From an uncultured Candidatus Saccharibacteria bacterium (lineage in GTDB: Bacteria; Patescibacteriota; WWE3; 2-01-FULL-39-13), in the NCBI GenBank assembly GCA_965230915.1, contig OZ246395.1:792935-856934 (forward strand): 64,000 nucleotides of DNA, in the 5' to 3' direction. Positions 69 through 30,136 of the stretch are shown here, piece after piece; position 1 is the first letter of the stretch, and every line of letters begins with the position of its first letter. The notes beneath the pieces were generated by a model that saw nothing but the letters and a program-made list of their open reading frames with translations, ran no database searches and was not told where the DNA came from. Both the position numbers and the translations under genes were made by a program.

Positions 69-1166
69 CTATAAAACGGCCAATGCAAGGCCAATTAAGC
101 CCGAAATTATCGTAAAAAGCCAAAGTCTTTGAGTAACTTTGGTCTCGGGCCAACCTAATTTTTCAAAATGGTGGTGAATCGGCGCTATCAAGAATATACG
201 TTTACCGGTTAATTTTACTGACCACTGCTGAGATACACTCGAGACGATTTCGATTATAAAAATTGCCCCTATAAATAAAACCGAGACTTCTTCATGTAAA
301 AGTAATGGCAACAAGGCAAAAATTATACCAATAGGCATAGTTCCAACATCAGACATTTCTACTCTAGCCGGATTTATATTGAAATATAAAAAGGCTAATT
401 CAGCCCCTAATAAAATGAAGGCCAAATAGGCGACTTCGTCATAACCCAGGTAGGCGGCTAAAATCCCATAGAAGGCGAAGGCAATGCTATGAGTTCCAGC
501 TGATAGACCATCTAGTCCATCTGTTATTCCAAATGCATTTAAAAAGCCTATGAAATAAACAATCGCAAGTGGGATGTAGATATAAGCGTTTAATTCAAAA
601 GTTCCATATATTGGAAAAGTAATAGTTGCTCCATTATTGTTTGCCATTAGGTAATATACCGGGATTATTGCTAAAACCAGCTGCATTAAAAATTTATAAT
701 GTGCTTTCATTCCTCGTTGTTCGCTTCCCATTACGCGAATGGCCTCTTCGAAGGCCCTCCAAGGAACTAAAATAACATTTTTTACCTTATCAATAGGGCT
801 TGGAACTGGAAAAAGGCTTATTTTGAAACCTCCACTTATTCGAATTGCTTTAAATGTTCGACCTAAGGTGTTGGTGTATTCATCTATTGCTCCAAATATA
901 GCGCCAAATATTGTGATTAAAATAACTGCAGGGTAGTATTCCCAATCGCGCAATATAAGAGTAGCCAAAAGCAAAATTGTGATAACAATTATGGCCCCTC
1001 CCATTATTGGAGTTCCGAACTTTACTTGTTTACCGGGTAATAATGCATCAAGCTCGGCCTTGGAAACTCGACGTATATTGAATTTGTACAAAAATCTAAT
1101 AATAGGGAAAGCTATCAAAAAGGTTACAAAAAATGAAACTAAGGTTATCAGTATATATGACAGCAT
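69..1166 (-). CDS. mraY: Phospho-N-acetylmuramoyl-pentapeptide transferase MraY
   Basis: 365 aa polytopic membrane protein with the MraY signature motifs GLDGL and APIHHHFE. It follows SecF directly on the same strand. Confidence 0.9.
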   Translation of the reverse strand: MLSYILITLVSFFVTFLIAFPIIRFLYKFNIRRVSKAELDALLPGKQVKFGTPIMGGAIIVITILLLATLILRDWEYYPAVILITIFGAIFGAIDEYTNTLGRTFKAIRISGGFKISLFPVPSPIDKVKNVILVPWRAFEEAIRVMGSEQRGMKAHYKFLMQLVLAIIPVYYLMANNNGATITFPIYGTFELNAYIYIPLAIVYFIGFLNAFGITDGLDGLSAGTHSIAFAFYGILAAYLGYDEVAYLAFILLGAELAFLYFNINPARVEMSDVGTMPIGIIFALLPLLLHEEVSVLFIGAIFIIEIVSSVSQQWSVKLTGKRIFLIAPIHHHFEKLGWPETKVTQRLWLFTIISGLIGLALAVL

Positions 1167-7770: not shown

Positions 7771-8754
7771 TTACAAATATTTAGCAACGTTGGCGTTATG
7801 TTGATCCAGTGTTTCAGCATAATGAGTTGTACCGTCTTTTCCTGTTATATAAAACCAATATGGGGTTTCTTCGTAGTTGATTACAGCCTGAATCGAATCA
7901 AGTGATGGATTACTTATAGGAGCTGGAGGCAATTCTTTATGAGAGTAAGTATTATATGGAGAATCAATATTCTGCAAGTCATTCCTAGTTACTGTAGGCC
8001 ACCAATCCGCTTCGGTGCCCTTTGCATATTGAACAGTTGCATCGGCTTGCATAGGCCAGCCATTTTGCCATCGTTTAACCAAAATTCCAGCAACTTTAGG
8101 TCGGTCTTTCTTAATATTCATTTCCCTTTCTAAAATTGATGCAATGATTATAGTTTGATCTAAAGTTAGCCCTCGTGATTGTGCTTTCGCAACTAAATCT
8201 GAAGTAACTCTTTTGTCAAAAGTATTTCGCATCCAGGACGCTAAATTATTAGCTGGATAATCTTCTTCGATAATATATGTGTCTGGGAACATGTAGCCTT
8301 CTTTCAGATAAGAACTTTTTGCAAATTCATCTGCAAATTCATCTCCGACCTGTTCGCGAAGATAATCAACGTATTCTTCTGTTCTCCATCCTTCAATAAA
8401 AGTTAGTTTAGTTTCGAATGTTCCATTTTGTAATTCGTCGACCAACTTTACTAAAGTCAGACTTTCATTTGGTATCCGATAGTATCCGGCTTGAATGCTT
8501 TTTTGCTTATTCAAGAATAAGTAGGCTTTTAAAATTAATGGGTTAGAAATAATACCTTCTTTTGTAAAGTAACTAGAAATTTCTTCAACACCCATCCCCC
8601 TTTCGATAGTTATGGTTAGTTGTTTTTCATCTTCACCTAAGGCAATCTGTTTGTGAATTTCACTGTTATAATAAGAGTATCCGATCAGTCCTGCAAAAAC
8701 TAAAATAGCAGCGACAATTGAGAAGATAATCAACAGTAATTTACCGAATTTCAT
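7771..8754 (-). CDS. mltG: Endolytic murein transglycosylase MltG (YceG-like)
   Basis: 327 aa with an N-terminal TM anchor and a YceG-like domain that includes an ASILEREM-type motif. Confidence 0.8.
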   Translation of the reverse strand: MKFGKLLLIIFSIVAAILVFAGLIGYSYYNSEIHKQIALGEDEKQLTITIERGMGVEEISSYFTKEGIISNPLILKAYLFLNKQKSIQAGYYRIPNESLTLVKLVDELQNGTFETKLTFIEGWRTEEYVDYLREQVGDEFADEFAKSSYLKEGYMFPDTYIIEEDYPANNLASWMRNTFDKRVTSDLVAKAQSRGLTLDQTIIIASILEREMNIKKDRPKVAGILVKRWQNGWPMQADATVQYAKGTEADWWPTVTRNDLQNIDSPYNTYSHKELPPAPISNPSLDSIQAVINYEETPYWFYITGKDGTTHYAETLDQHNANVAKYL

Positions 8755-17269: not shown

Positions 17270-18046
17270 TTAAGGAAGTACTGCTAATTTAGCTTGTTTT
17301 GTAAGCCCAAATTTAGGCATACTTTCTTTAGCTAATAAGTAACTTAATATGAAAGTGTCTCTGACAGCTTTAAAAATAACTTTTAGATTACTTCCGGTAG
17401 AAGATCCAAATTGTCTTTTATAGTGGTTAACTCCGATTTGTTTAAATTTGTAACCGTTTCTATATGACTTTAATAAAAATTCAGTTGTGACCATAGCCCC
17501 ATCACTAACTAATGGGCTGGCAGCAACAATAACTTCTTTTCTTATTAATTTAAAAGCACAATCAATATCTCTTATTGATCTTGGGAATCCTAAAAAGATT
17601 CTATTCCAGACTTTTAGAGTATCGGCTAACAATTTTCTTTTGAACCCTTCCGCTCTGACTTTTCTATAACCAATAACAAGGTCATTATTTTTAGCAAAAG
17701 GAATGAATTTTGTGATTTCGTTTAAATCAAATTGTAAATCTCCGTCGCTAAAAAATACCCAATCATATTTGGCTTCTTTAAAACCTCTTTTTACGGCTCC
17801 TCCGTATCCTTTGTTTCTTTGAGATACTAATCTCACAGAAGGATATTTCGCCTCTAATTTTTTAGCAATTTCTCTTGTTTTGTCTTTACTACCATCGTTT
17901 ACTAAAACGATCTCGAATTTTTCAGCTACTTTTGGGAAAACTTTTAATGATTCGGCGACTAGTTTTTCTACATTTGCTTCCTCGTTGTATAGAGGAAAGA
18001 AGACTGAAAGTCCTTTAAGTTTTAGGGTAGGTTTACTTACTTTCAT
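17270..18046 (-). CDS. GT2 polyprenol-phosphate sugar synthase (dolichol-phosphate mannosyltransferase-like)
   Basis: 258 aa with the motifs LYNEE, VLVNDGSKDKT and FSDGDLQ typical of the DPM1/Ppm1 family. A -10-like TACCAT box lies 6 nt before the ATG, so the transcript may be leaderless. Confidence 0.8.
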   Translation of the reverse strand: MKVSKPTLKLKGLSVFFPLYNEEANVEKLVAESLKVFPKVAEKFEIVLVNDGSKDKTREIAKKLEAKYPSVRLVSQRNKGYGGAVKRGFKEAKYDWVFFSDGDLQFDLNEITKFIPFAKNNDLVIGYRKVRAEGFKRKLLADTLKVWNRIFLGFPRSIRDIDCAFKLIRKEVIVAASPLVSDGAMVTTEFLLKSYRNGYKFKQIGVNHYKRQFGSSTGSNLKVIFKAVRDTFILSYLLAKESMPKFGLTKQAKLAVLP

Positions 18047-18128
18047 AGACCTATGGTAACAAGCTATAGGGTATGTGTCAAGCCCAAAAGTGGACTTAAA
18101 AATAGCCTATAAATTGAGTGAAATAAGT

Positions 18129-18593
18129 TTATTCTGTGTAGCCTAAGGTACATCCCCACGGACATTTAACGATAACCGGGTAGTAGGCTCCTAGTTCAGT
18201 ATCATTAGGCCTTATAATTGTTGGGATGGCTGCGTCGCCTGTACCAACTGGTTCAATATATTTATTTTCGCTGTAGCTCCAAACAAGAATGTCAGAGTTT
18301 GTTAAAACGTCCCTGTCTCCATCGTAGAAACAGACATCATTTTCAGCTAAAGGTATATTTGTGCCTATCCATTCTCGGCATGGCTTTGTATTTTCTGGCC
18401 CTCTAGTTGTAACTACTGAGCGAGCTGAAGCTTCTAATTTTGAAGCCTTTTCTGTAAGAGCAGAAACTTCTAATTTAAGCTTGTTATTTAGATTGAAATA
18501 ATCGTAAGCAACATACCCTACACCTACTAAAAATAGTGTTACGACGATCGAATAGTATAAATAATAATTTGTATTTATTTTTAGATTAAACAT
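18129..18593 (-). CDS. Small N-terminally anchored extracytoplasmic protein
   Basis: 154 aa with one TM segment and a Cys-containing C-terminal domain. Unknown function. Confidence 0.35.
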   Translation of the reverse strand: MFNLKINTNYYLYYSIVVTLFLVGVGYVAYDYFNLNNKLKLEVSALTEKASKLEASARSVVTTRGPENTKPCREWIGTNIPLAENDVCFYDGDRDVLTNSDILVWSYSENKYIEPVGTGDAAIPTIIRPNDTELGAYYPVIVKCPWGCTLGYTE

Positions 18594-18650
18594 ATTTTTG
18601 AATCCTTCTTAAATTCAACAAATTGCTTTTTTGATTTTAAGAAAAACTGT

Positions 18651-18753
18651 GAAGACGGCGAGAAGAAAGAAGAAGGGGTGTATTTTTTATAGTCGATGTG
18701 ACTGTAAAAAAGTGTCTATTTACACCTCCTTTCTCTTTTTCTCTGCCGTCTTC
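18651..18753. terminator. About 103-bp imperfect inverted repeat (32-nt arms) with a U-tract on the minus strand; terminator of gene A and the left edge of the high-GC block
   Basis: The arms GAAGACGGCGAGAAGAAAGAAGAAGGGGTGTA and TACACCTCCTTTCTCTTTTTCTCTGCCGTCTTC were read directly. Minus-strand CAGTTTTTCTT follows. Confidence 0.55.
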
Positions 18754-18771
18754 GAACGAACACAAACATGA

Positions 18772-19905
18772 CTACCTCACGACATCGGTTGTGGCGATTG
18801 CCAACACCTCGTTGCCGGAGATAACCGCGATGCGCACATGCACGACGTTGCATCCCATGGGGACGGAACAATTCGCGCCAGCGTTCGCTGCGGTTGGTTT
18901 GTTAAGGACTGTATCCCGATTGAGCATATTGCCCGTAACGTGAGACATTCCCGCCCAAATGGCCTGAGGGAGATATTCACCCCACCAGTACCGACCCCAA
19001 ACCGTAAACCCGCTGTCAACGTGTTGATCTTCATACGAAGACGTAACGTTGCCAACGTTAATGATCATGAGCGCGCAACCGTCGCCGGTGTCCTGCTCGC
19101 CGTCACCATCTGTGTCTTTGGTGCTACCAATACAAGTCCCTAACGGGGCGATGTTGTAGTCACCGGTGATGATACGGTAATGCTGCGCCGGAGTGACAAT
19201 GTCACACAACTCTTCCTGCTGGCAAAACGATGATTCGGCCATGCCGTATTCCAAACCTTGAGAGGCTGGGTACGTCAAGTTCGGGTTCACCACGTTGTCA
19301 ACATTCGGAAACTGCTTCCAGATCCCCAAATCCAGGTTATACCAAGGCCAGGCCTTGATATGCTCAGGAGCGAGGTTGGTGTAAGACACCGCCCATTGCC
19401 CTTGTGGCAAATTCGGTAAAACAACTGCTGCTTGCGCTGATGGCGATTGCGGCATCGACGCTTGGGTTAAACCTCCAACTGCTGCGGCACTTACTTCGCC
19501 TGTCGGGCTAGACAGATTAAAAGCATCTGTCGTAGGCACGGCGGCTACCGTCTGCGGCGTTGCTGTCGGAACCAAGATCACCTCGCTCGTAGGCGCGGCT
19601 GCAACTGCTTGCGCGGTTGCCGTTGGAACCAAAACTGGCGCTGCACCATTCGCTAGAGGAGCTTGTTGCGACACACTCGTCGGTGCACTGACTGACGGCA
19701 CTGATCCCCCAGGCTGGTTAGCCGGATTCACAATTGTCGTCGGCGTCGGCGCGACCTCAAGAGTCATAACGCTGCCAAGCTTGGCTTCGGGCTGGTTGGG
19801 CGCTGCTGTCTGGTTAATACTCCATATGGCAAGCCCTCCAATCACGAAGACCAAAATCCCTGTTAACACGATTGTTGCCAATCGGCGTTGCTCAGGTGTA
19901 CTCAT
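18772..19905 (-). CDS. Membrane-anchored exported protein with a Pro/Ala/Thr/Val-rich repeat linker and a Cys-containing C-terminal domain (DTDGDGEQDTGDGC calcium-binding-like motif)
   Basis: 377 aa, GC-rich. The terminal codons have GC-rich third positions. Confidence 0.5.
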   Translation of the reverse strand: MSTPEQRRLATIVLTGILVFVIGGLAIWSINQTAAPNQPEAKLGSVMTLEVAPTPTTIVNPANQPGGSVPSVSAPTSVSQQAPLANGAAPVLVPTATAQAVAAAPTSEVILVPTATPQTVAAVPTTDAFNLSSPTGEVSAAAVGGLTQASMPQSPSAQAAVVLPNLPQGQWAVSYTNLAPEHIKAWPWYNLDLGIWKQFPNVDNVVNPNLTYPASQGLEYGMAESSFCQQEELCDIVTPAQHYRIITGDYNIAPLGTCIGSTKDTDGDGEQDTGDGCALMIINVGNVTSSYEDQHVDSGFTVWGRYWWGEYLPQAIWAGMSHVTGNMLNRDTVLNKPTAANAGANCSVPMGCNVVHVRIAVISGNEVLAIATTDVVR

Positions 19906-19962
19906 TTGTACTTACCTTTCTAAGGGTCTCCCCTTCATACCACTCTCTCGATAAAAAACGGG

Positions 19963-20053
19963 TTAGTTCTTGATAATAGACACATCCAAAAAGCCTAAAT
20001 TAGCCCGATATGATAGGCCTATAAGCTTCCTCGATGTGTCCATCAAGAACTAA
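19963..20053. repeat. Composite hairpin (12-bp perfect outer stem plus an 8-bp inner stem) enclosing a GATATGATAGGCCTATA core
   Basis: 5' arm TTAGTTCTTGAT...GACACATC, 3' arm GATGTGTC...ATCAAGAACTAA. It lies 58 nt upstream of gene A's start. Confidence 0.45.
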
Positions 20054-20289
20054 TATTTTTGTTTGTGTTCGTCATATGAAATCTGCCTTTTCTCAAGAGC
20101 CGTAGCTAAGAGAGTAACAGCGTCATATTATTTGAAAGTGCTTCCTTAAAAGCTAATTTTAAGGAGCTTTAGGCCAACAAGTTAAACTTCTTGGCTCTTT
20201 AGGAATGCCCTTTTTAGACCTCCCGAAAGATGCTCGAATTATACTATAGGACTCGTAAATTGTCAATGGGGGCAAGGGTTTTCTAGCTT

Positions 20290-21594
20290 TTAGGACTTTA
20301 GCTTACCATTAATAGCAGTCATGGTATGTCGGCTATTGTGGCCAATTCCTTTGGCTTGAACCATCGATATTTTTTCGCCAGTAAAGGAGTCATTTGGCTG
20401 ATCTAAAGACATGGCTGTTGGGTAGCTATGTCCAGTTAAGCCAGGATTACTCCATACTGCAGACAGGGGTTGCGGATATTTTATAACAAGTTCACCTTCA
20501 CTCCAAGAGATTCCGTCAGCAGATTTAGAAGCGCAAACTCCTACGTTGGTTTGGAAGGTAGAAATAAACTCACCACGCTTAGTGTTGTAACTAATTCCCG
20601 GCAAGGCGGCATAACCTGCGCCAGGTATAGATGCGGGAGGAGTTATTACTGGCTGCAGATCTGGGGTTTCCCCGGGCTGCATAACTTTAAATCCATCTTT
20701 TGTGTAATGTTCTAATGCTCCAATCGTGTTTCCAATTAATGGCAACCTGGCCATGAAAATTTGATCAACAGTGTTAAATTTAGCTTTTGATTCTTGAGGA
20801 ATCCACTCGATGTAATAAAGCAAAATTTGTTCTTGGCCTGTATTTGAATCTTGAACTTTTATTGCGTGCGGCTGACCCGCTCCTGTAACTTCTCGACCTG
20901 GTTGTGAATGTTCACGTCCAGTAATTAATTGGCCCATCGGCTGGAATGTTTTTCCGTTTTGAGATTGGGCTAGACCAACTGAAGCAGTGAACCCAGCTCC
21001 GTTGCCAGGATTGATATGCTGCTCGTTGTGAGTAAAGCCAAGGTAGCCTCCATTAAACTCAACAACTGAAGTTACTGCACAATATCCGTTTCGATAAGTT
21101 TCGTTTGGATCTCTAGTAATTGCAGGTACAATTGCATTTTGTTCATTAGTTTCTGGTCTAAAACCTTTTTTTGAGTCCCATAGATATGGGAACGATCCTT
21201 GAATGCCAGACATAATTCCTGAAACAAACATGCGTTTTGTTTCGCCATCTTCTGCTGTTATAAATGGAACATGACCATCGGGGGTCCATTCCATTCCGGG
21301 CGTGGCTAGTGCGCGTTCACCGTGTTCAAATTCAAAAAAACTATTTTCGGGAAATTCCAATTCTGTTTCTTGTGCAAGAAATTGTTCGAAAGGTTGTTGT
21401 GGTTCAATCGCGACTTCGGCATCTTGCACAGCCGCTTCTGGTTGATTTTGAGATGACCCAAGCGTAGCTGCTGCCAACGTTGCAACAGCGGTTCTTCCGG
21501 CAAGTTTTAAGAAATCACGTCGTGAATAATTTGGCTCTGGATTTGGGTTTATGGTGTTTATCTGATTATTTTCGTTTTCGTTAGGTTCAACCAT
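20290..21594 (-). CDS. Tat-signal exported protein, paralog 1 of 2 (possible beta-propeller glycosidase-like, unverified)
   Basis: 434 aa with an RRDFLK twin-arginine motif. It is clearly paralogous to 21608..22870 (shared VSGI..G.QGS.PY.W, TGAGQP.AIKV and E..G..WS). Codon usage is native-like. Confidence 0.5.
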   Translation of the reverse strand: MVEPNENENNQINTINPNPEPNYSRRDFLKLAGRTAVATLAAATLGSSQNQPEAAVQDAEVAIEPQQPFEQFLAQETELEFPENSFFEFEHGERALATPGMEWTPDGHVPFITAEDGETKRMFVSGIMSGIQGSFPYLWDSKKGFRPETNEQNAIVPAITRDPNETYRNGYCAVTSVVEFNGGYLGFTHNEQHINPGNGAGFTASVGLAQSQNGKTFQPMGQLITGREHSQPGREVTGAGQPHAIKVQDSNTGQEQILLYYIEWIPQESKAKFNTVDQIFMARLPLIGNTIGALEHYTKDGFKVMQPGETPDLQPVITPPASIPGAGYAALPGISYNTKRGEFISTFQTNVGVCASKSADGISWSEGELVIKYPQPLSAVWSNPGLTGHSYPTAMSLDQPNDSFTGEKISMVQAKGIGHNSRHTMTAINGKLKS

Positions 21595-21607
21595 CTTAAG
21601 AATTATA

Positions 21608-22870
21608 CTAGCCTTTTGTTTTTAGTTTTAGAGCAACCATAGAATGTTGTCTGGCTTGGCCTATTCCGCGAGCCATAAGCATTGTTAAATTTTCACCGGT
21701 AAAATTATCATTAACCTTTGAAAAATCTACTAACGAAGGGTAGCTATAACTTGAGTTCGCAGGGTTTTGCCATACTTCTGAAAGTGGAACTGGATATTTG
21801 ATAATAAGTTCAGCTGAACTCCAATCAAGACCATTTTCAGATTCCGTAGCACAAACTCCAAGATCTGTTTCAAATATAGCTAAAAGTTTTTGACGTTTAG
21901 TGTTGAATGTAACTCCAGCTAAAGCTGAATAATTTGCATTCGCAAGATTTCTTGGATAAATTAAGACCGGCTTAAGATTAGGCATGGCTTTCGCATTTAT
22001 TGTGTTTTTAAATCCACTTTGTGTCCAGCTTTCAACTGCACCTAGTCCATTATTTTGTAATTCTAATTTCGTTAAGTAAATTTCATTTGGAGTAAATTGA
22101 TCTCTCGGGAGCCATTCAGTGTAATAAATATATGCATAGTTTTTGCCAGTATTACGATCTGTAACTTTAATTGCACAAGGCTGACCTGCCCCAGTAACCT
22201 GTCCACCTGGGTAAAGAGTTCGTCTACCTAAAATAGGTGACCCAGCTGCGCGCTCAAATGTTAAACCTCCATCTTTTGAAACGACAATACCAACCGATGC
22301 CCGAAAACCTGCGCCATTTTGAGAAGCCACCCATTCTTCGTCATGAGTAAATCCGAGCAAACCATAATTAGTTTTAATAACTGAAGTTAGCCCCGAATAT
22401 CCATTTCGATAATATTGAGTGTAATCTGATTGATTTCTAGACACACTTGGAGCAAAGCCATTCGGTCCGATATATCTATTAAGACCTTCTGATGGCGACC
22501 AAGTATATGGATAAGAACCTTGAACTCCATTAACAATTCCGGAAACCCACATTAATTTTGAGCCATCGCTTTGTGTAATAAATGGAATTCGCCCATCTGG
22601 GTACCATCCCATTTGTGGCAAATCGACACGGTATTCGGTTTGTTCAAAATCAAAGTAGCTGTTTTCTTGAAATTCTAATTGGGTTTCTTGTTGGGGATAA
22701 AGCTCAAATGGAAATTGAGTTATTTCTTCTTCGTATGACTGTTGCTTATCTAAACCAAATGGAGCAATTAAAGCTGCCCTATGGGACTGATCGGTTAAAG
22801 CTCGAAATGTGTGGCCTAGAAATTCTCGTCTTGATAATTTTATTTCGTTTAAATCGGGTAGTTCTTCCAT
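21608..22870 (-). CDS. Tat-signal exported protein, paralog 2 of 2
   Basis: 420 aa with an SRREFLG motif, colinear with 20290..21594. Confidence 0.5.
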   Translation of the reverse strand: MEELPDLNEIKLSRREFLGHTFRALTDQSHRAALIAPFGLDKQQSYEEEITQFPFELYPQQETQLEFQENSYFDFEQTEYRVDLPQMGWYPDGRIPFITQSDGSKLMWVSGIVNGVQGSYPYTWSPSEGLNRYIGPNGFAPSVSRNQSDYTQYYRNGYSGLTSVIKTNYGLLGFTHDEEWVASQNGAGFRASVGIVVSKDGGLTFERAAGSPILGRRTLYPGGQVTGAGQPCAIKVTDRNTGKNYAYIYYTEWLPRDQFTPNEIYLTKLELQNNGLGAVESWTQSGFKNTINAKAMPNLKPVLIYPRNLANANYSALAGVTFNTKRQKLLAIFETDLGVCATESENGLDWSSAELIIKYPVPLSEVWQNPANSSYSYPSLVDFSKVNDNFTGENLTMLMARGIGQARQHSMVALKLKTKG

Positions 22871-22954
22871 ATTTATGGTTTAGCAGGGTTTTATTTAGAA
22901 TTCTAATTTTAAGGTTTCGATTATTTTTGAAATCCAAATCTTAAAGATAGAATG

Positions 22955-23030
22955 CCCGGGCGGAGAAAGTTGAAAAAGTTTTGATATGCTAAAAAACGCA
23001 TGTCTAGTTTTTCCAAAATTCTCGCCCGGA
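22955..23030. terminator. Composite hairpin (CCCGGGCGGAGAA / TTCTCGCCCGG) enclosing GATATGCT-A6-CGCATGTC, 23 nt after the stop of the 23053 gene
   Basis: Seen in the sequence. The minus strand is U-rich after the stem. Confidence 0.45.
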
Positions 23031-23052
23031 CGGCATCTATGGTTGTACTACG

Positions 23053-23730
23053 TTATGGGTGAGGGATGACGACTATCGTCGAGATCACTTGGACGGATCC
23101 GTCTTGCAACGCAACCGTTGTCGTGATCGGGAAAGTCCCACCCTTCCAATCGAAATCGTGAGGCACGTAGCGATCGTTCGCCGCATAGTCAAACAAATAC
23201 GGATCTGATCCATCACCCCAATCAATCGAATGGCCTTGCAGAGCAACATCGTTCGTCTGAATGTGCAGGACAACCTGGTTATAGGTCGCACCAACAGTCG
23301 GCGTAACGGTGAAGCTGGGATACACTTCGTACGGCTCATCGACAACGATGTTAGATGTGCCGTTAGCGGTCATGGTGTAGTAGCGAACGCTGCCACAGCC
23401 CTTTTCACCCACACAACCGGTTGCCAACATCTTGTTGATCGCCGCCTTGATATTCGACTTCTGCAAGTCGTACGGAAGCCAGCTAAAGCCATAGGTTTTT
23501 TGACCAATGGTTGGCGCCGATGGGCAAGCAAGCACCTCGATAACCTGGCCCGTATTGGCGTCGTCATCTAGGGTCACAGTTTGAGCACCGTTCGCATAGG
23601 CACACGAAAGACTTACGTCTCCCGCGTAAAAATGCGAGGCGGTTTGCGCCTTGACGGGATAAGCCGAAAACAAGACTGCAACCAACGCAACGACTGCAAA
23701 ACCGAACTGCGAAATCAATTTGCGAAACAT
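23053..23730 (-). CDS. Secreted protein with a PKD-like C-terminal domain (WGDGS...HDFDW..G.F.ITTTV)
   Basis: 225 aa with a signal peptide. The region looks GC-rich (~50% by eye) and the 13 terminal codons have 8 G/C third positions. Confidence 0.5.
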   Translation of the reverse strand: MFRKLISQFGFAVVALVAVLFSAYPVKAQTASHFYAGDVSLSCAYANGAQTVTLDDDANTGQVIEVLACPSAPTIGQKTYGFSWLPYDLQKSNIKAAINKMLATGCVGEKGCGSVRYYTMTANGTSNIVVDEPYEVYPSFTVTPTVGATYNQVVLHIQTNDVALQGHSIDWGDGSDPYLFDYAANDRYVPHDFDWKGGTFPITTTVALQDGSVQVISTIVVIPHP

Positions 23731-23926
23731 TGTAGTAAATCCTCTCTTGAAATGGTTTTAGACAAAACAGTACTGCATAAAAACCTCCATATAATGAAGC
23801 TCTTAACGCAGACTGCTTTGACCCACTTAAAAAAGTATCCATAGATATTTAATGTGCGAATATCCAATGAACGATTTGCTCTTTGGATAGTTTAAATTTC
23901 CCTGATATACAGCGAAACTTGAACTA

Positions 23927-24000
23927 CTACCTCAGGATTGTTGTTTTTTCTTATGCTCGCGCATATGAGAAGCTTTAGGCTTCCAACAACCCTGAGGGTA
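23927..24000. terminator. Composite hairpin (CCTCAGGATTGTTG / CAACAACCCTGAGG) enclosing a TTATGCTCGCGCATATGAG inner palindrome and a GAAGC-TTTAG-GCTTC mini-hairpin
   Basis: 11 nt after the stop of gene 24009..25715. Seen in the sequence. Confidence 0.45.
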
Positions 24001-24008
24001 AACCATAT

Positions 24009-25715
24009 TTAGTTGTTAACTACAGCCAAAGGCAGAAAGACGTAGTCTTTCGGCTGATTGGGCTTGAAATTCGGATCGACAACCTGCAGCATAACGCCGC
24101 ATTGCACGTCTCCTGCGGGAGATGTGATTGTGATGTTTGGCGCGTAAGCGGCCTTGCCAGTGTTCGTATCCCACGAGTAATCATGCGTGACGACTCCGTA
24201 ATCAATGCTGCCATTGATGGTCTCGATACGATACGGATCGCCCTGTCCGAAGTTGAGATAATGACTCACTTTCGAACCCTGCATAAGCTGATAGGCGTTG
24301 GCCCATTCGAGCTTGAACTGGAACCGATTAAACGGGTCACCTTCAAGGTGGCGGGCTTCCAACTTGCAAGTCGGCTCAGGCAACTCTTCGTCCATAACGA
24401 CTGCGACTTCACAATTGCGACCCGTGGTCTCGGCGACGATAAACAGCGTCGAGGTATAAACCTTGCCAGGTTCATACGGGTAGGTAAATGTGAAGCTACC
24501 TGTGCCACTGATGGCCGAGGTGATCGTGATGAACTTTGGATCGATCATGCTCTGACCGGAATACAGACTGTGATAATCGGCATCGGGCGAAGCGCCATCC
24601 CAAGAGTAGTCGAAGCGATACGTGACCGGGTCGATCTTTTGGGAAGTCATCGTGCATGTCGCGGGGCTTTCGGTGTCGACGCTTACGACAACCGACTCAT
24701 TCGATTCAACCGGATAAGGGCTGAACCAACTACGCGAAAACACTGTTACTGTTTGGACATCCTGCTTGTTAATACGGAAAGAGACATTGCGTGTTCCAGG
24801 CGTACAAGACAAACCTGTGACCGGCGCGCTCATCGGTTGGGGCTGGCACTCTGATGGATAATCGCTGAATGGCATTCCGCCTGCTGTTATCAGCATTGAG
24901 TTTGCGCCTTCAGGGGCCATCACGGTGACATTGACCAAATCCATGTAGCGGTAAGAACCGGCTTGAACCTGAATGACTGGCTTCGGCACTCGGCACTTTG
25001 GCGCGAGAATGTCTTGCGTCCAAACCACTGTGTTCGTTGAGTCCGAAATCGTTAAGGTGGTTGTTACTAACCCCGTCTCGATAAAATAGGCCTCAACATA
25101 GTTGCCAAACATATTCCCTTCTTCGGGTCCGTCCAACTGCCACTGAAAAATGCCTTGGTGGTTGCCCGCCAGGCCGTTGCAATTGGTGTTGACGAAAGCC
25201 GTATACACGCCAGTGTCGCGAATCTGATATTCCCAGTCCCATTGTGTGGAACTGTTCTGGATCGGATTCACGCCGACGTAAAACGGGGGCCGCACGTCGA
25301 TAGTCACGGGGAAGGTGTAATCCAATCCACCGAAATTATCGTAGTTTAGCCCAGCCTGATATAACGTAAGACCCGCGCCGTAAGCATAGCCGTGAGTAAA
25401 CTGCGGGCTGTCGCCATCGGTGTTCAGATACACGTCAAAAAAGGCTCCATCGCCGAACTCAAAGTTGTGGTATCCAGCTTCAGGAATGGGAGGACAATCC
25501 AATTCCCAACGGAAAACGTTGGGTTCTTGAATGACCTCTTGGTTGTTCACGCATTCGACCCCAGCGGCCTTAGCCGCAAACGGAATGCAAAAAGCGCCAA
25601 ACAAACCTGCTGCAAAAACCAACATCTTGATCAAATTGCGATACATCAGAATCTCTCTTTCTTCATACATTGTTAACAAAATTGGCCGAGCTAAATCTTC
25701 AATATAAAGATCCAA
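24009..25715 (-). CDS. Secreted multi-domain protein with PKD-like repeats
   Basis: The true start is probably the internal Met near 25643 (MYRNLIKMLVFAAG..., a signal peptide preceded by AAAGAGAGA). Its C-terminal domain (CKLEARHLEGDPFN...FGQGD...THDYSWD) is homologous to the C-terminal domain of 27825..28937. Confidence 0.5.
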   Translation of the reverse strand: MDLYIEDLARPILLTMYEEREILMYRNLIKMLVFAAGLFGAFCIPFAAKAAGVECVNNQEVIQEPNVFRWELDCPPIPEAGYHNFEFGDGAFFDVYLNTDGDSPQFTHGYAYGAGLTLYQAGLNYDNFGGLDYTFPVTIDVRPPFYVGVNPIQNSSTQWDWEYQIRDTGVYTAFVNTNCNGLAGNHQGIFQWQLDGPEEGNMFGNYVEAYFIETGLVTTTLTISDSTNTVVWTQDILAPKCRVPKPVIQVQAGSYRYMDLVNVTVMAPEGANSMLITAGGMPFSDYPSECQPQPMSAPVTGLSCTPGTRNVSFRINKQDVQTVTVFSRSWFSPYPVESNESVVVSVDTESPATCTMTSQKIDPVTYRFDYSWDGASPDADYHSLYSGQSMIDPKFITITSAISGTGSFTFTYPYEPGKVYTSTLFIVAETTGRNCEVAVVMDEELPEPTCKLEARHLEGDPFNRFQFKLEWANAYQLMQGSKVSHYLNFGQGDPYRIETINGSIDYGVVTHDYSWDTNTGKAAYAPNITITSPAGDVQCGVMLQVVDPNFKPNQPKDYVFLPLAVVNN

Positions 25716-25875
25716 GTCTTATTTCGACCAATTTTAAATATGGTGCATGTCAAAAACTGAACGCTAGTTTCTGCAAAAGAAAATTTGTTCTAGTTTTCGA
25801 TCATTATTTAAATGTTCTTTTCTATTCAACTTTTATAGATCACCTGATTGTTAACCTGTAAAAATTGAAAAGCTT

Positions 25876-25948
25876 GTCCGGTGGAGTTGATTGTGTTTGA
25901 TATGCTTGCGCATAAAAGTCGAAAATCGACCAATCAACCCCTCCGGAC
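25876..25948. terminator. Long-stem terminator (18-bp arms GTCCGGTGGAGTTGATTG / CAATCAACCCCTCCGGAC) enclosing TTGATATGCTTGCGCATAAAAG and a GTCGA-AAA-TCGAC mini-hairpin
   Basis: 10 nt after the stop of 25962..27185. Minus-strand AAGCUUUUCAAUUUUU follows. Confidence 0.55.
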
Positions 25949-25961
25949 TGTGTGCATTTAG

Positions 25962-27185
25962 CTAGTTGCGCTTGAACGTTGCTCCATACGGGGCGTAAAT
26001 TAGCTGCCCTGTCGGAACTGCAACATTCAGGTCTCCACCATGGTGGAACTCGTTTTCGGTAAAGATCCCGTCGGCGCTGACATACAAGTCAGAATTCGAA
26101 AGAAGATTCTCATTCGTCTTGCATACCGTTCCGGCTGCCATGAACGGACCGCCAATGAAATCGGCACAGTTCAAAGGGTTCCCTTCGAAAGTGAAGATCA
26201 CGGCGGGGCCGGATTCTACCGCTGCTTGCGGAATGAACGTCTTTACCTTTGGCGCGGTTGGCGTCGCACTTGGTGTCGGCGTCGCGCTCGGGGCGGGAGT
26301 CTGCGTAGCAGGCTCATGCTCGATAACGAAGCTTGCACCATATGGCGCGTAAACCCAAACCGGACCTGAGAATTCTCCACCCTTCGAGTGAAATTCGTCT
26401 TCGAAGAAAATCTTGTCATCACTGACGTATACATCACTGTCAGTGCTGACTGTGACCCCTTCGGGAACGAAACAAACCTTACCAACCTCAAGCTGAGTCG
26501 AAACATACAAACGGCAATCGGAAGCGCCTTCCCCTTCGAACGTATAGATCGGAGTTGGCGTTGGCTCAACTGTGTTTGTAGGTTCAACCGTGCTGGTCGG
26601 TTCGACAGTCTGTGTGACGGTCGATGTCGGCTCGGGCGTCGTGCTCGGAGTAGCCGTAACAGTAACCGTTGCGGTCGCTGTCATTGTCGGAGACTCTGTC
26701 GGTACAGGCGTAGAACTCGGCGTCGGACTTTGTGTCGGGGTTTCTGTTACGGGAGGAATGTCAGTCGGTGTTACCGATGAAGTTGCTGTCGGCGTTGGCG
26801 TCGACTTGCGGTCATCAATAACAATCTGAAATGTATCCTCTAGAACAACATTCCCAGGCACCCAATCCAAACCAATGGTGTATGTAATTACCCCATTAGG
26901 CACGTAGGCGTATGCATGCTGAACGCTTGCATCACCTTCCGCATTGAATCGTAAATCCACCTTCTGACCGTCCCCAAAATATAACGTGCGGTAGTGGTCT
27001 TCTTCCTTTGTGGGGGTTGGGACCAAATTCGAACAATTAAAATTGAAGCGATACTGATTAGGTGGGACTTCCACCGGCTTTTGAACCTGACAGTCAGGGG
27101 TATTGTCCGCGGCGGATGCCGTGGCATAACCACCAAATACTGCAGATAAAACCAATGCGCTTGTAATCAAAGCCTTGCGTAACAT
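25962..27185 (-). CDS. Secreted protein with a PKD-like N-domain, a Thr/Pro-rich linker and two tandem ~80-aa C-terminal repeats
   Basis: 407 aa with a signal peptide and YFGDG...HAYAY. Internal repeat: IYTFEGEG...VYAPYGASF versus IFTFEGNP...IYAPYGATF. SD GAAGGAGAG. Confidence 0.55.
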   Translation of the reverse strand: MLRKALITSALVLSAVFGGYATASAADNTPDCQVQKPVEVPPNQYRFNFNCSNLVPTPTKEEDHYRTLYFGDGQKVDLRFNAEGDASVQHAYAYVPNGVITYTIGLDWVPGNVVLEDTFQIVIDDRKSTPTPTATSSVTPTDIPPVTETPTQSPTPSSTPVPTESPTMTATATVTVTATPSTTPEPTSTVTQTVEPTSTVEPTNTVEPTPTPIYTFEGEGASDCRLYVSTQLEVGKVCFVPEGVTVSTDSDVYVSDDKIFFEDEFHSKGGEFSGPVWVYAPYGASFVIEHEPATQTPAPSATPTPSATPTAPKVKTFIPQAAVESGPAVIFTFEGNPLNCADFIGGPFMAAGTVCKTNENLLSNSDLYVSADGIFTENEFHHGGDLNVAVPTGQLIYAPYGATFKRN

Positions 27186-27440
27186 GATTTCTCTCCTTCA
27201 TACGATAGGCCCAAGTCGGGCATAATACATAGATAACAAAATTAGCCAAATAGAGCCTTCGCCCCGTGGACATTTGGGGATAAAAATCAAAGGCTCAACA
27301 TGGCTAACTTTGCCGTGGAGAGAATGTAGCTAAATGCACGTATGACGTGTACTTGGAAAAAGAAATCCCGCGAAGGGAAATGATTTCGCTGTACTTTCAT
27401 ACTATATTAAGGAACTCTATCTCGGGTTAATTCCTTTGAT

Positions 27441-27550
27441 AGTTGAAGAGATTCCCATCCTGCCCAGTTGGAAATCTGCTTCAATCAGCAAACGAATCAA
27501 CGAATAGTTGAAGGGTTTCTCGTCCTGCCCAGTCGAGAAACCGCTTCAAG
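27441..27550. ncRNA. Tandem pair of hairpins with an identical 11-nt loop (TCCTGCCCAGT) and covarying stems; candidate structured RNA or leader element
   Basis: Hairpin 1 (27441-27485): AGTTGAAGAGATTCC...GGAAATCTGCTTCAAT. Hairpin 2 (27506-27550): AGTTGAAGGGTTTCTCG...CGAGAAACCGCTTCAAG. The outer helix is identical, the inner helix differs with compensatory changes, and both have a bulged G at the same position. Confidence 0.5.
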
Positions 27551-27685
27551 CATCCGTCGAACGAACTGCATATTATATATTAAAAAGGAGATTTTTGGCA
27601 GGAAACATTACTGCCTATAGTTAAAAGTTAGGCAAGTAAAGAGAGTGATTAACTCGGGATCCTGTCCATGTATCCCTTTCTTAAT

Positions 27686-27735
27686 CTGGCGATATTATAC
27701 AATTTTCAAACCCCAATGTCAATTGCTATAGGGTA
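27686..27735 (-). promoter_or_regulatory. Consensus promoter TTGACA-17-TATAAT on the minus strand, with an ATACCCTATAG motif directly upstream of the -35
   Basis: -35 at 27716-27721, -10 at 27693-27698, CTATAG at 27725-27730. Transcription from here would run through the tandem hairpins toward gene 25962..27185. Confidence 0.55.
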
Positions 27736-27753
27736 TTGGTAAGCCAAAAGAAA

Positions 27754-27812
27754 AGCCCGGGCTGTTTTTGATCTTTGAGATCTAGAAGCTTTTTGGCTTC
27801 AAACAGTCCGGG
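27754..27812. terminator. Terminator of gene 27825..28937 (stem GCCCGGGCTGTTTTTG / CAAACAGTCCGGGC with a large structured loop and a minus-strand U-tract)
   Basis: 15 nt after the stop codon. Seen in the sequence. Confidence 0.55.
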
Positions 27813-27824
27813 CTAAAACATAAG

Positions 27825-28937
27825 CTAGTTGCGAGAAACTACTCTGGGAACCCACAATTCGAGCTTAGGCCTGTTGGCGGGATGATTCGGGTCAACAATG
27901 TCGACGATTGCCGTACAAACCTTTGGCCCGAAGTCGGAATCGGATGGAACCGTTAATCTCGCCGTATACTGCGCTTTACCGGTTTCTACGTCCCAGGCAT
28001 ATTCGTGCCAAAGCGGCCCGAAATCGATAGCACCTTTGGGGCCGACGTGAAGGTTTTGATCTTCTCCTCCATCGCCGTAGTTAATGGTCGCCATATCAGT
28101 CGCGGCAAACCACGTAACCTGAAATTCCCAATAATTAAATGGAGCGCCTTCTGGATGCCGCGCTTCGAGTGTGCATTCAGGTTCATCACCAGGCTGCCCA
28201 CCCCACGACGGGTCAAGAACGGTAATCTGCTTTTGGCAAATTGCTGGGTCCTGCCCTTGCCGCCCAGGAACCACAACCGTTGCGGTATATACCGAATACC
28301 CACGGAAAACATCCCACGGATAATCGTGGTAGTACTCGCCCCATTCATAATCCGCATTTGGATAACGGATTCCCTCTGCCAGATTCGGACCAGGAGTGTC
28401 ATCTCCCAAATCAAGAAATGGGACACTCCCGTAGGCATTTGTCCAACCAATCTTAAAATCAAAGTGGTTGAACTTATCGCCCTCTCGAACTTCAAATTTG
28501 CAAGTTGGCTCACCGAACGACTTCTGGGTAGTGACTATGGCCTGGCAGGTCGCCGTTTCATTCTCGCCGTACACATACATAGTCGCCGTATAAAGCGTGT
28601 TTGTGATGTACGGGTACGTGTAAGTTACGACGCCGTTCCCAGAGACCCCTGGAACCTCGTACCACGGATAGTAGTCATAAGGGTTTCCAAAGTCGATCGA
28701 GTTGTTATTGTCGGCTTTACCCCCGCTCCACGTATAGGTAAACTGGAAGCGAAAATCCTGAACATCCTTAGCGACAAGCGTGCACTTCGTTTCACTCGCC
28801 CCTGTTGATTGGGCCGCAACATCGGGCTTTTGCACACTAGCATGACTCGGGACTTGGACACAGGCAACAAGCAAAAACAGATAGCCGATTGCTGTAAACA
28901 TGCTGAACAAAAATAACCTAGCAGCACGTCTCTTCAT
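27825..28937 (-). CDS. Secreted protein with tandem PKD-like domains
   Basis: 370 aa with a signal peptide. Motifs YGDGGEDQ...HEYAWDVETGKAQYTARLTV match the PKD consensus. Paralogous to 24009..25715. Confidence 0.55.
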   Translation of the reverse strand: MKRRAARLFLFSMFTAIGYLFLLVACVQVPSHASVQKPDVAAQSTGASETKCTLVAKDVQDFRFQFTYTWSGGKADNNNSIDFGNPYDYYPWYEVPGVSGNGVVTYTYPYITNTLYTATMYVYGENETATCQAIVTTQKSFGEPTCKFEVREGDKFNHFDFKIGWTNAYGSVPFLDLGDDTPGPNLAEGIRYPNADYEWGEYYHDYPWDVFRGYSVYTATVVVPGRQGQDPAICQKQITVLDPSWGGQPGDEPECTLEARHPEGAPFNYWEFQVTWFAATDMATINYGDGGEDQNLHVGPKGAIDFGPLWHEYAWDVETGKAQYTARLTVPSDSDFGPKVCTAIVDIVDPNHPANRPKLELWVPRVVSRN

Positions 28938-29136
28938 CGAAATCCTCTCTTTCTACGAGAAATTTAAGGGAAACAGTTATTTATTGATTTATTCAATGTA
29001 CAAGCATTTAGCTTATAAGCGCATATCATATATCAACCTATAGAAATAATCTATATTTTTATAGGATATCTAAGTTATTTTCTTTAATCTTTTTATAGAT
29101 CATATCGCATTAAAGATCGCCCACTATCCCATAGCG

Positions 29137-29165
29137 TTGACGACTACCCGGTTGAGTTGTAAAAT
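29137..29165 (+). promoter_or_regulatory. Sigma70-like promoter TTGACG-17-TAAAAT for gene 29202
   Basis: Seen in the sequence, and preceded by CCCATAGCG. Confidence 0.5.
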
Positions 29166-29201
29166 AGTAATAATTATTTTTCCTGCTCAGAAACTAAAAA
29201 T

Positions 29202-29963
29202 ATGCAACTTTCTAACATTCTAAAAGTAGGTGCCATAGTAATAAGTGGAATCGCTCTAGCCTTTTTGGCAGGATATGTTATTTTCTCTTATTTCAATAGA
29301 GACGCAGGAATTCAACAAAGCACAACCGTAGCTAATACTCCAGTTAATGTAGAAAGCGATAGTGAAGGCATTTCAGACCAACAAGGCGAAGTTGCAGGAG
29401 TATCTACAGACGATACGAATGGCATAACCACAACTGGAAACACCAATCAGACAACATCTAAACCAGCAGTTTCTGACCCAGATGGAGACGGCATAACTCC
29501 CAGTACCACTGCACCAGCAGCGATTACAGTAACAGAAGAAGACCGCAGAATTTATAGAGACACACACAGAAACGATGAAATTACCTATGTTGAGGCCGAT
29601 GACGGTAACGACGACTCAGAAATAACTTTGAGCCCTACTCCAGAGGTAAATGAAGAAGACGATTACTTCGAATACGTATATACCTTCGAATTTAACAACG
29701 ACGCACAAGATAGATATGAAGATGGATTCACCTATTCTATCGACGGCCAAAGCTGTGATGATTCAGATTTCTTTACTAGCGATAAATACGATTTTAAAGG
29801 AAAAATCGAAGCTGACGATATAGACGATGAAGTTACTATCAAAGTAAGAATCAAAGACGAATATATTGATGATTCTAACGATTTCGAAGATTCATCGTAT
29901 AAATTTGATGGAAAAAACTACACTGTTAAAGGCGATATAAATGTGCCTCAGTGCGAGAATTAA
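29202..29963 (+). CDS. N-terminally anchored, highly acidic surface or extracytoplasmic protein
   Basis: 253 aa with a TM anchor and D/E-rich low-complexity sequence. No family recognised. Confidence 0.45.
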   Translation: MQLSNILKVGAIVISGIALAFLAGYVIFSYFNRDAGIQQSTTVANTPVNVESDSEGISDQQGEVAGVSTDDTNGITTTGNTNQTTSKPAVSDPDGDGITPSTTAPAAITVTEEDRRIYRDTHRNDEITYVEADDGNDDSEITLSPTPEVNEEDDYFEYVYTFEFNNDAQDRYEDGFTYSIDGQSCDDSDFFTSDKYDFKGKIEADDIDDEVTIKVRIKDEYIDDSNDFEDSSYKFDGKNYTVKGDINVPQCEN

Positions 29964-30136
29964 TCAAACCATTTCAAACTTTTCTCGAAGCTAATAAGTT
30001 CCTCGGCACAACCTTTACTGGGAAATTATATGTTTTCAGCCTGCGAAAGCTTCTATAAAAGTTTGAAATTTGTTTAAATAAATCAATAATAACCCACCCA
30101 CCGTATACCCTATAGTATTGACTATTCCGACGAAAA

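Follow-up and report, generated by a model that had tools for sequence, protein, structure and literature searches.

A tandem, covarying stem-loop in the predicted leader of a secreted-protein gene cluster of Patescibacteria

The locus and its two hairpins

We analysed a stretch of 64,000 nucleotides from an uncultured Candidatus Saccharibacteria bacterium (contig OZ246395.1, positions 792,935 to 856,934 of the forward strand, assembly GCA_965230915.1). This whole stretch is called 'the window', and positions are counted from its first letter. It has about 35% G+C and encodes an archaeal-type AspRS, SecDF, YceG, ComM, RecJ and many proteins without a Pfam family. Two minus-strand secreted-protein genes flank a spacer of 639 bp (27186-27824), and within it lies the pair of similar hairpins that is the subject of this report. 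An earlier note on this DNA had placed two 45-nt elements, 19 nt apart, in a spacer of about 640 bp. The spacer and the two elements are indeed there, but the elements are 44-mers separated by 21 nt, and the hairpins to which they belong measure at least 58 nt. Judged by sequence comparison, the hairpins are anciently duplicated copies of one previously undescribed structured RNA module, folded on the minus strand. Their parts are as follows.

27500 to 27557, minus strand: hairpin H2, the first copy on the RNA, with helix P1 ACGGAUG/UAUUCGU, helix P2 UUGAAG/CUUCAA, a bulged C, and helix P3 GGUUUCUCG/CGAGAAACC
27523 to 27533, minus strand: loop of H2, ACUGGGCAGGA
27435 to 27492, minus strand: hairpin H1, the second copy on the RNA, with P1 UUUGCUG/UAUCAAA, P2 UUGAAG/CUUCAA, a bulged C, and P3 AGAUUUCCA/UGGGAAUCU (one G-U pair)
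27458 to 27468, minus strand: loop of H1, ACUGGGCAGGA

Read on the plus strand, each repeat unit has AGTTGAAG/CTTCAA as its arms, an inner helix of 9 bp and TCCTGCCCAGT as its loop. The outer helix and the loop are shared by the two copies, as had been claimed: the arm pattern AGTTGAAG-N-GCTTCAA is found exactly twice in 64 kb (27441-27484 and 27506-27549; 0.03 expected), and so is the 11-mer TCCTGCCCAGT (0.33 expected). The inner helices differ by fully compensatory changes, which can be seen directly in the sequence. A repeat search described the pair as a tandem repeat with a unit of 63 nt, a spacing of 65 nt and 75% identity. In the RNA sense the order within a unit is P1, UUGAAG, bulged C, 9 bp, loop ACUGGGCAGGA, 9 bp, CUUCAA and P1'. 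The basal helix P1 (7 to 10 bp, including G-U pairs) forms on the minus strand only, and it is this helix that lengthens each hairpin to at least 58 nt. The 141-nt region accordingly folds better on the minus strand (-58.4 kcal/mol, z = -6.0) than on the plus strand (-43.0 kcal/mol, z = -4.1), because C-A mismatches of the plus strand turn into G-U pairs on the minus strand. With a covariance model (R2), both H1 and H2 scored 68.5 bits; on the plus strand H1 scored 18.2 bits.

A covariance-model search of the 64 kb of the window, and of related DNA totalling about 175 kb, found no further copy of the hairpin. Protein coding across the hairpins was rejected, given indels of 1 nt, the compensatory changes and the lack of a conserved open reading frame (ORF). 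H2 is followed by CUAUUCGUUGA and H1 by CUAUCAAAGGA, that is, neither is followed by a U-tract, and an intrinsic terminator or attenuator was therefore rejected as an explanation of the pair.

Relatives of the module and covariation

A strict pattern scan was run on genome, viral-contig and metagenome collections, using the arms TGAAG/CTTCA and the full 11-nt loop. The metagenomes gave 14 matches, one of which, designated L010, was true; the genome collection gave seven chance matches without stem complementarity, and the viral contigs gave none. The RecJ encoded at L010 is 51% identical to that of the window, with its gene on the corresponding side of the element and oriented as in the window, and RecJ homologues were therefore used to fetch syntenic loci. 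The same module was found at the syntenic site on the RecJ side in seven other lineages; in L023, L025, L010/L032, L026 and L028 it is divergent from recJ. RecJ identity to the window is 79% for L023 (one hairpin), 70% for L025 (two hairpins), 53% for L026 (one hairpin, in which P2 is swapped for a different helix) and 51% for L028-30 (one hairpin, in which both helices are replaced and the loop is ACAGGCAGGA). The loci L032 (a longer version of L010), L040-47 and L048 were reached through an NYN gene beside the L010 element. The L025, L026, L028 and L040 types had escaped the strict scan because its pattern demanded TGAAG/CTTCA and the whole 11-nt loop; they were recovered later by synteny. 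Among the RecJ homologues, those with a named source belong to candidate division WWE3, Levybacteria and the Patescibacteria group, and the window is therefore part of the chromosome of a WWE3-like Patescibacterium. The lineages compared are thus the window, L023, L025, L010/L032, L026, L028, L040 and L048, with ten hairpins among them: the hairpin is single in six of the eight, and tandem in the window and L025.

The stems of these ten hairpins are near-perfect helices of 15 to 25 bp, closed by loops of 10 to 11 nt. All base-pair cells of P2 and P3 (148 of 148) form standard pairs, while 12 of the 15 pairs have changed on both sides; none of 500 shuffles matched any of these measures, and when the 3' partner was slid by 1 to 3 columns as a control, pairing fell to 37 to 63%. 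If P1 is included, 91.8% of cells are paired and 15 of 22 pairs are compensatory. The strand is equally well marked: there are 23 G-U pairs and 13 non-pairs in the sense direction, compared to 4 G-U pairs and 32 non-pairs in antisense, and covariance-model scores range from 41 to 72 bits in sense and from 14 to 22 bits in antisense. The earlier note had argued for selection on structure and had proposed a search for homologues and covariation in relatives. Such homologues exist in seven other lineages, they carry compensatory changes, and the argument holds.

The two copies of the window, taken alone, cannot tell selection from a lucky pair of mutations, and they could have arisen when a palindrome of chance origin was duplicated locally and recently, without any function. 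This explanation has practically no chance of being right, since it is refuted by the covariation and by the age of the duplication: orthologues in seven other lineages share an invariant loop and compensatory changes, and the duplication itself is common to the window and L025. H2 is the positional orthologue of the L023 hairpin and of the first L025 hairpin (L025a), and is nearest to the single hairpin of L023 (48 of 58 positions identical). H1 agrees with the second L025 hairpin (L025b) at 49 of 58 positions, and with H2 at only 40 of 58. We conclude that the duplication predates the split of the window and L025 lineages.

The last seven bases of the loop, GGCAGGA, are identical in all ten hairpins and eight lineages, and the three or four loop bases that precede them vary (ACUG, CAUG, GUCG, AAG, ACA). 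The bulge between P2 and P3, described earlier as the same bulged G, is present in both copies of the window; on the RNA, however, it is a C, and as it may be C, U, UA or absent among the relatives it is not a conserved feature. Although the hairpins of the window and L025 are positional orthologues, the loop starts with ACU in both copies of the window and with CAU in both copies of L025 (about 7940-7950 and 8011-8021). Both copies of one genome have therefore changed in concert, by either gene conversion or co-adaptation to one partner.

A switch between alternative structures, in which an arm of one hairpin would pair with an arm of the other, had also been suggested. It is not borne out: the cross duplex reaches -6.7 kcal/mol, compared to -58.4 kcal/mol for the native fold, and only one hairpin is present in six of the eight lineages. 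Complementarity between the arms of two hairpins is the automatic result of duplicating a hairpin.

Promoter and leader

The hairpins lie downstream of a promoter sequence and upstream of a secreted-protein gene on the same strand. The features of this region are listed in the order of the RNA.

27743 to 27815, minus strand: terminator-like hairpin AGCCCGGACUGUUU..AAACAGCCCGGGCU followed by UUUUCUUUU, an inverted repeat of 14 nt with 93% complementarity, which ends the upstream gene 27825..28937
27694 to 27722, minus strand: promoter TTGACA-17-TATAAT, matching the consensus at 12 of 12 positions
27647 to 27686, minus strand: 5' hairpin GAUUAA..GGGAU[ACAUGGACAGG]AUCCC..UUAAUC, from the RNAalifold consensus of the window, L023 and L025, with compensatory pairs
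27596 to 27636, minus strand: three mutually complementary segments, CUUGCCUA, UAGGCAG and UCCUGCC, from the alignment with relatives
27394 to 27436, minus strand: small hairpin AAGGAAU..GUUCCUU, then the conserved block AAUAUAGUAUGAAAG
27237 to 27312, minus strand: long-range stem CAAAGUUAGCCA/UGGCUAAUUUUG, an inverted repeat just 5' of the ribosome-binding site
25962 to 27200, minus strand: ribosome-binding site GAAGGAGAG and first downstream gene (ORF 25962..27185), encoding 407 amino acids with a signal peptide, Pro/Thr-rich linkers and no Pfam family

The promoter had been noted before, one base away from its actual place. In each of the seven lineages scanned, the hairpin is preceded at 90 to 192 nt by a sequence of the form TTGAC(A/T)-17-TAT(A/T)AT; the equivalent in L028 is TTGACA-17-TATACT. 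Transcription is predicted to start near 27686-27688, and the terminator-like hairpin upstream of the promoter sets the leader apart as a separate transcription unit. Measured from this predicted start to the AUG at 27185, the leader is 505 nt long, with a fold z-score of -8, and a terminator scan of positions 27000-28000 on the minus strand found none. The nucleotide identity of the leader among the window, L023 and L025 (70 to 74%) is close to that of recJ (69 to 76%). A leader of about 500 nt running toward 25962..27185 had been postulated, and this agrees with the lack of a U-tract terminator in between, with a signal-peptide gene in next position in eight of eight lineages, and with the level of leader identity. 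A tandem conserved stem-loop within a structured leader of about 500 nt, which starts at a conserved promoter and runs without a U-tract terminator into a secreted-protein cluster, is thus very probably what the locus encodes.

Several elements of the leader recur across lineages, namely the 5' hairpin, a stem-loop CCAAGGAG..CUCGUUGG, the block AAUAUAGUAUGA, and the long stem before the ribosome-binding site. The long-range stem of the window covaries with its L025 version, CAAAAUUGGCC/GGUCAAUUUUG, and the small hairpin is likewise covarying (AAGGAAU/GUUCCUU in the window, AGAGAGC/GCUCUUU in L025). Within the block AAUAUAGUAUGAAAG, which is kept in the window, L025, L032, L040, L048, L026 and L028, GUAUGA pairs with a UCAUAC located about 70 nt downstream, and the AUG starts only tiny or non-conserved ORFs. 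A leader peptide at the conserved AUAGUAUGA was rejected, given ORFs of 2 to 37 codons, a frame that is not conserved and no Shine-Dalgarno sequence. A second promoter at 27601..27572 was rejected as not conserved, and a boxA-like GYUCYUUAA is unlikely to be a NusB/E site, as it forms the 3' arm of the covarying small hairpin.

In most lineages, including L025, L026, L032 and L040, a Shine-Dalgarno-like AAGGAG (AAGGAA in the window, 27420-27434, minus strand) directly follows the hairpin on its 3' side, with no usable start codon after it. In the clade with about 50% RecJ identity, this AAGGAG is the 5' arm of the stem-loop CCAAGGAG..CUCGUUGG, which has a conserved G-G or A-G mismatch. In L025, a sequence GGCGGG-AAUUAUA-CCUGCC followed by U7, terminator-like, is located between the 5' and main hairpins (about 8125-8165, minus strand). 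The equivalent hairpin of the window, at 27596..27636, and that of L023 are followed by an A-rich sequence instead of U7; the L025 version could be a lineage-specific attenuator.

The loop of the 5' hairpin reads ACAUGGACAGG followed by A (UGGRCAGG followed by A) and resembles the main loop. Extra leader hairpins with G(A/G)CAGG at the 3' end of the loop were seen in L032, GAU[ACCUAUUAGGACAGG]AUC (about 5018-5042), and in L026, AUAGG[AAAACCGUCCGACAGG]CCUAU (about 945-975, minus strand). With the loop at 27647-27686 of the window, the motif is therefore displayed several times per leader. One related loop of L026 reads GACAGGC, without GGA. The UCCUGCC segment within 27596..27636 is a perfect 7-nt complement of the loop sequence GGCAGGA, and such a partner is present upstream in the window, L023, L025 and L032-type leaders, and absent from L026 and L028. 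A pseudoknot between the loop and an upstream UCCUGCC or UCCUGUU is unproven; it lies beyond the covariation test because the loop never varies.

A structured leader need not have a sequence-specific partner. The hairpin could be a purely structural element (a 5' stabiliser, a shield against Rho or a processing site for RNase III) in the mRNAs of highly expressed surface proteins. Its long, near-perfect helices, the extreme structure of the entire leader (z = -8) and the strong promoter would suit such a role; so would downstream proteins that are secreted and probably abundant at the surface, and long, structured 5' untranslated regions (UTRs) that stabilise the mRNA are found at S-layer genes. 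Such a role, however, leaves unexplained why seven loop bases are invariant down to about 50% RecJ identity while the stems drift, and why the loop start has changed in concert within a genome (ACU in the window, CAU in L025). We therefore consider it rather improbable.

Alternatively, the covarying helices that present invariant unpaired nucleotides, the position in a 5' leader and the tandem arrangement in two lineages recall the aptamer of a ligand-sensing riboswitch, tandem in some genomes as in the glycine, NAD+-I and guanidine-II classes. Yet a simple hairpin offers neither a junction nor a conserved internal loop, no expression platform (a terminator or a helix sequestering the ribosome-binding site) overlaps it, and its copy number is 1 or 2. 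The genes downstream encode orphan secreted proteins rather than transporters or enzymes, and no Rfam riboswitch matched even at E <= 10. A riboswitch thus seems quite improbable.

Downstream genes and insertions

The 407-amino-acid gene heads a same-strand run of secreted-protein genes that extends to about 18.7 kb. What comes next on the strand of the leader is, in eight of eight lineages, a gene without a Pfam family, whose product begins with a signal peptide and contains Pro/Thr-rich linkers. The flanking secreted proteins of the window, L023 and L025 are only 30 to 45% identical or cannot be aligned, and an exact look-up of the downstream protein matched only an identical 2.7-kb Logan contig. 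The proteins from 24009..25715, 25962..27185 and 27825..28937 have repeated domains in common, and two adjacent minus-strand genes at 20290-22870 (434 and 420 amino acids) are tandem paralogues with 46% identity. The downstream cluster is a fast-evolving paralogous family of orphan secreted proteins. Its G+C content is 41 to 48% in the window (18000-30000), compared to 28 to 40%, mostly 31 to 37%, in the rest of the window. The first gene after the leader reaches 49 to 58% in five relatives (L026:1-520, L028:4956-6206, L032:5216-5587, L040:4911-5804, L048:2359-3102), where the locus has 35 to 38%. As the bias is common to the lineages, it gives no sign of recent transfer.

The last stem of the leader, AAAAUUGGUC..GGCCAAUUUUG, recurs at 25650-25760 (minus strand) before the second gene of the cluster (ORF 24009..25715), and this second gene is the orthologue (43% identity) of the L025 gene directly behind the leader. 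For these two reasons the 407-amino-acid gene looks like an insertion or duplication that carries a copy of the leader end. For ORF 24009..25715, the TTG start given in the list probably lies too far upstream; a likelier start is at MYRNLIKMLVF.

Insertions of another kind were observed in two relatives. In L040 (3829-4920) the leader is interrupted by an NYN (LabA) gene, which separates the hairpin from the CACAUAGUAUG block; in L048 (710-2360) the same interval holds an NYN gene plus a reverse-oriented hicB. Each insertion is bounded by an extra copy of a leader module of 45 to 70 nt (L048 772-816, 1547-1591, 2049-2093). The NYN ORF is flanked by inverted repeats of about 20 nt, in which both arms have changed in a matching way between L040 and L048 (CUGAAUAU/AUAUUCAG vs CCGAAUAU/AUAUUCGG). 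In L032 (3440-5216) the NYN gene stands upstream of the promoter instead, and in other Microgenomates it is found beside hisS, without the hairpin. The NYN nuclease was rejected as a dedicated partner of the RNA, which it flanks at differing positions in L010/L032, L026, L040 and L048; no NYN gene was seen near the RNA in the window, L023, L025 or L028. It looks like a lineage-specific insertion.

These arrangements bear on two further explanations. The first is an autonomous non-coding RNA, for instance a protein-titrating sponge with its own strong promoter, whose loops would sequester a regulator in trans and whose position upstream of the secreted-protein genes would be incidental. The consensus promoter directly after a terminator is what such an RNA would have, several loops contain RCAGG(A) as do sponges of the CsrB/RsmZ type, and genes have been inserted right behind the hairpin in L040 and L048 while promoter and hairpin are intact in eight independent contigs. 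However, no lineage has an intrinsic terminator after the hairpin, the distal leader is conserved as far as the ribosome-binding site, and a same-strand secreted-protein gene comes next in eight of eight lineages. We regard a sponge as unlikely, while giving it some weight.

The second is an element acting at the DNA level or as a guide RNA: an attC-like recombination site, a transposon end or a degenerate guide array of the TIGR type. The locus is an insertion hot spot for genes in which leader modules have been duplicated, the arms GTTGAAG/CTTCAAC look like integron core sites, and the format (conserved arms, two variable 9-nt segments, a conserved 11-nt loop) is superficially that of TIGR arrays, here in a genome of the candidate phyla radiation (CPR). 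Against this, the paired 9-mers are always complementary to each other and orthologues keep related sequences; units number 1 or 2 rather than 5 to 15, and their period is 65 nt, not about 36; compared to attC, the arms stand in reverse order; and the position is fixed and syntenic. Moreover, no Nop/Tas, integrase or transposase gene lies beside the element in the window, and the inserted genes are bordered by repeats of another leader module rather than by the hairpin. Such an element is very improbable.

A possible recognition element

Since the helices drift around a frozen loop, the hairpin has the appearance of a scaffold that displays the loop to a trans-acting reader. As an overall explanation, the best that we can offer is a cis-regulatory leader in which the hairpin is displayed to a trans-acting factor, and we would give this a probability of about one half. 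The helix scaffold would display the invariant loop to that factor, most likely an RNA-binding protein common to all lineages; binding would set the fate of the downstream mRNA, through translation, stability or read-through; and the two copies of the hairpin, plus the related UGGACAGGA loop in the 5' hairpin, would make binding multivalent. The narrower proposal that a sequence-specific factor, probably a protein common to these lineages, binds the loop and controls what becomes of the secreted-protein mRNA is plausible but tentative. A CsrA-type reader of GGA is the only candidate that can be named, because of the CAGGA(U/C)G at the junction of loop and stem and the related RCAGG loops elsewhere in the leaders; it fits only partly, and poorly.

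Several points weigh against a display hairpin with a protein reader. Transcript ends were placed from the promoter consensus and the absence of a terminator. The covariation sample comprises just eight lineages and ten hairpins, and the alignment was registered by hand on the structure, with insertions and deletions padded with N. No csrA, Nop/Tas, NusG-paralogue or KH/S1-regulator gene was found among the approximately 45 proteins of the window, itself less than 10% of a genome, or among the neighbours in the relatives. Stems and loops are unlike those of preferred CsrA sites. Finally, NYN in L040 and L048, with hicB in the latter, comes between the hairpin and the remaining leader; the hairpin can thus stand apart from the distal leader, and an autonomous 5' RNA domain fits as well as a cis-regulator. 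Pfam and NCBIfam searches on about 60 neighbouring proteins detected no RNA-binding regulator.

A bolder idea, which we consider rather improbable, is that the GGCAGGA hairpin would be the recognition element of a Patescibacteria-specific RNA-binding regulator of the secreted or surface proteome, and the leader a landing pad for gene insertion with duplication of leader modules. If so, the regulated proteins would be those that an episymbiont uses for host contact, and the leader would be an integron-like expression platform without a known integrase, into which secreted-protein, NYN nuclease and hicB genes have been inserted. If the neighbouring insertions are targeted, the locus would show how reduced genomes gain and express new surface genes.

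Patescibacteria, also known as CPR bacteria, make up a large share of bacterial diversity; to our knowledge, almost nothing has been reported on their gene regulation, and we know of very few RNA motifs specific to them. The present element combines unusually clean covariation, an invariant 7-nt loop and a strict tie to high-G+C, fast-evolving secreted-protein genes, whose products are the likeliest mediators of host attachment. The 58-nt hairpin could be used as RNA bait for its regulator in organisms that are hard to culture, and the covariance model for mapping such loci in metagenomes.

Comparison with known systems

The earlier note had proposed a search for a known RNA family. Rfam 15 gave no match to the whole window at gathering thresholds, and at E <= 10 the spacer gave chance matches only, such as a microRNA precursor on the wrong strand (23 bits, compared to a threshold of 63). 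The homologous leaders (L008, L036, L046, L048, L039, L025) likewise gave no family match.

In format the element resembles the arrays of TIGR-Tas systems, which also occur in Patescibacteria and have tandem units made of an edge, a 9-nt variable segment, a conserved loop and a second 9-nt variable segment. In TIGR arrays, edge and loop repeats are 8 to 12 nt long, spacers 9 nt, units usually 5 to 15 in number and the period about 36 to 42 nt (Faure et al. 2025, PMC12045711). Spacers A and B guide independently of each other and pair with opposite strands of the target (PMC12045711), whereas here the 9-mers pair with each other in ten of ten hairpins and orthologues differ by compensatory changes only; a TIGR array was therefore rejected. 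The element further differs in having one or two units, a 65-nt period, a 21-nt linker between arms and no box C/D motifs. Pfam scans of the window proteins, and the Pfam matches of the relatives' neighbours, revealed no Nop-domain (Tas) gene, although a very divergent Tas could escape Pfam.

Integron attC sites have the order 5'-R''(RYYYAAC)...R'(GTTRRRY)-3', with one site per cassette and intI nearby. The hairpin is similar in being imperfect, in keeping structure more than sequence, in its GTTRRR/YYYAAC-like arms and in its gene-insertion neighbourhood. An attC site was nevertheless rejected, because the arm order is 5'-GTTGAAG...CTTCAAC-3' on both strands, the reverse of attC, and there is just one locus, in a fixed position. 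The scans of window proteins revealed no integrase.

Guanidine-II (mini-ykkC) riboswitches and ANTAR targets consist of two obligatory short hairpins with ACGR tetraloops or AxxGxx hexaloops, the second of which overlaps the expression platform. Like these, the window has a pair of neighbouring hairpins in a 5' leader that share one conserved loop. In our case, however, the loops are of 10 to 11 nt and end in GGCAGGA, the hairpin is mostly single, no terminator overlaps it, and the Rfam mini-ykkC model gave no match.

Leader hairpins also recruit anti-termination factors, as do lambda nut boxB, HK022 put, the LoaP-binding hairpin and the EAR element. The shared traits are a sequence-specific loop that soon follows a strong promoter and, further on, a long operon on the same strand for surface or secreted proteins; a boxA-like string is also present in the leader (GCUCUUUAAAAU in L025). 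Unlike in those systems, this string is the 3' arm of a small hairpin rather than single-stranded, and there is no sequence similarity. Neither an N-like nor a NusG-paralogue gene was found among the window proteins or the neighbours in relatives.

Genes for S-layer and other surface proteins have long, structured, stabilising 5' UTRs, and the leader is like them in its strong promoter, its very stable structure over several hundred nucleotides and its secreted, probably abundant product. We know of no such UTR with an invariant loop motif conserved across distant lineages.

With CsrA/RsmA sites, that is, the CsrB/RsmZ sponges and CsrA-controlled leaders, the element shares GGA in a hairpin loop, repetition on one RNA and location in a 5' leader: GGA is in the loop of ten of ten hairpins, with the junction GCAGGA(C/U)G, and the CsrB repeat is CAGGA(U/A/C)G (PMC7652899). 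CsrA prefers stems of at most 4 bp and hexaloops, and added loop nucleotides reduce its affinity (PMC7652899); the stems here are of 15 to 22 bp and the loops of 10 to 11 nt. The base before the motif is G in nine of ten hairpins, not the A preferred in CsrA sites, and the conserved core comprises 7 nt (GGCAGGA), whereas CsrA needs about four. Searches by tblastn with three CsrA/RsmE queries gave no csrA match in the window and the fetched loci, which are a small part of each genome. Transcripts of csrA have been reported from ultra-small groundwater prokaryotes in general (PMC9938205).

The locus agrees with a structured cis-regulatory 5' leader in the generic sense: it has a conserved promoter, covarying helices, no terminator before the coding region, a conserved class of downstream gene, and a leader that is about as well conserved as recJ.

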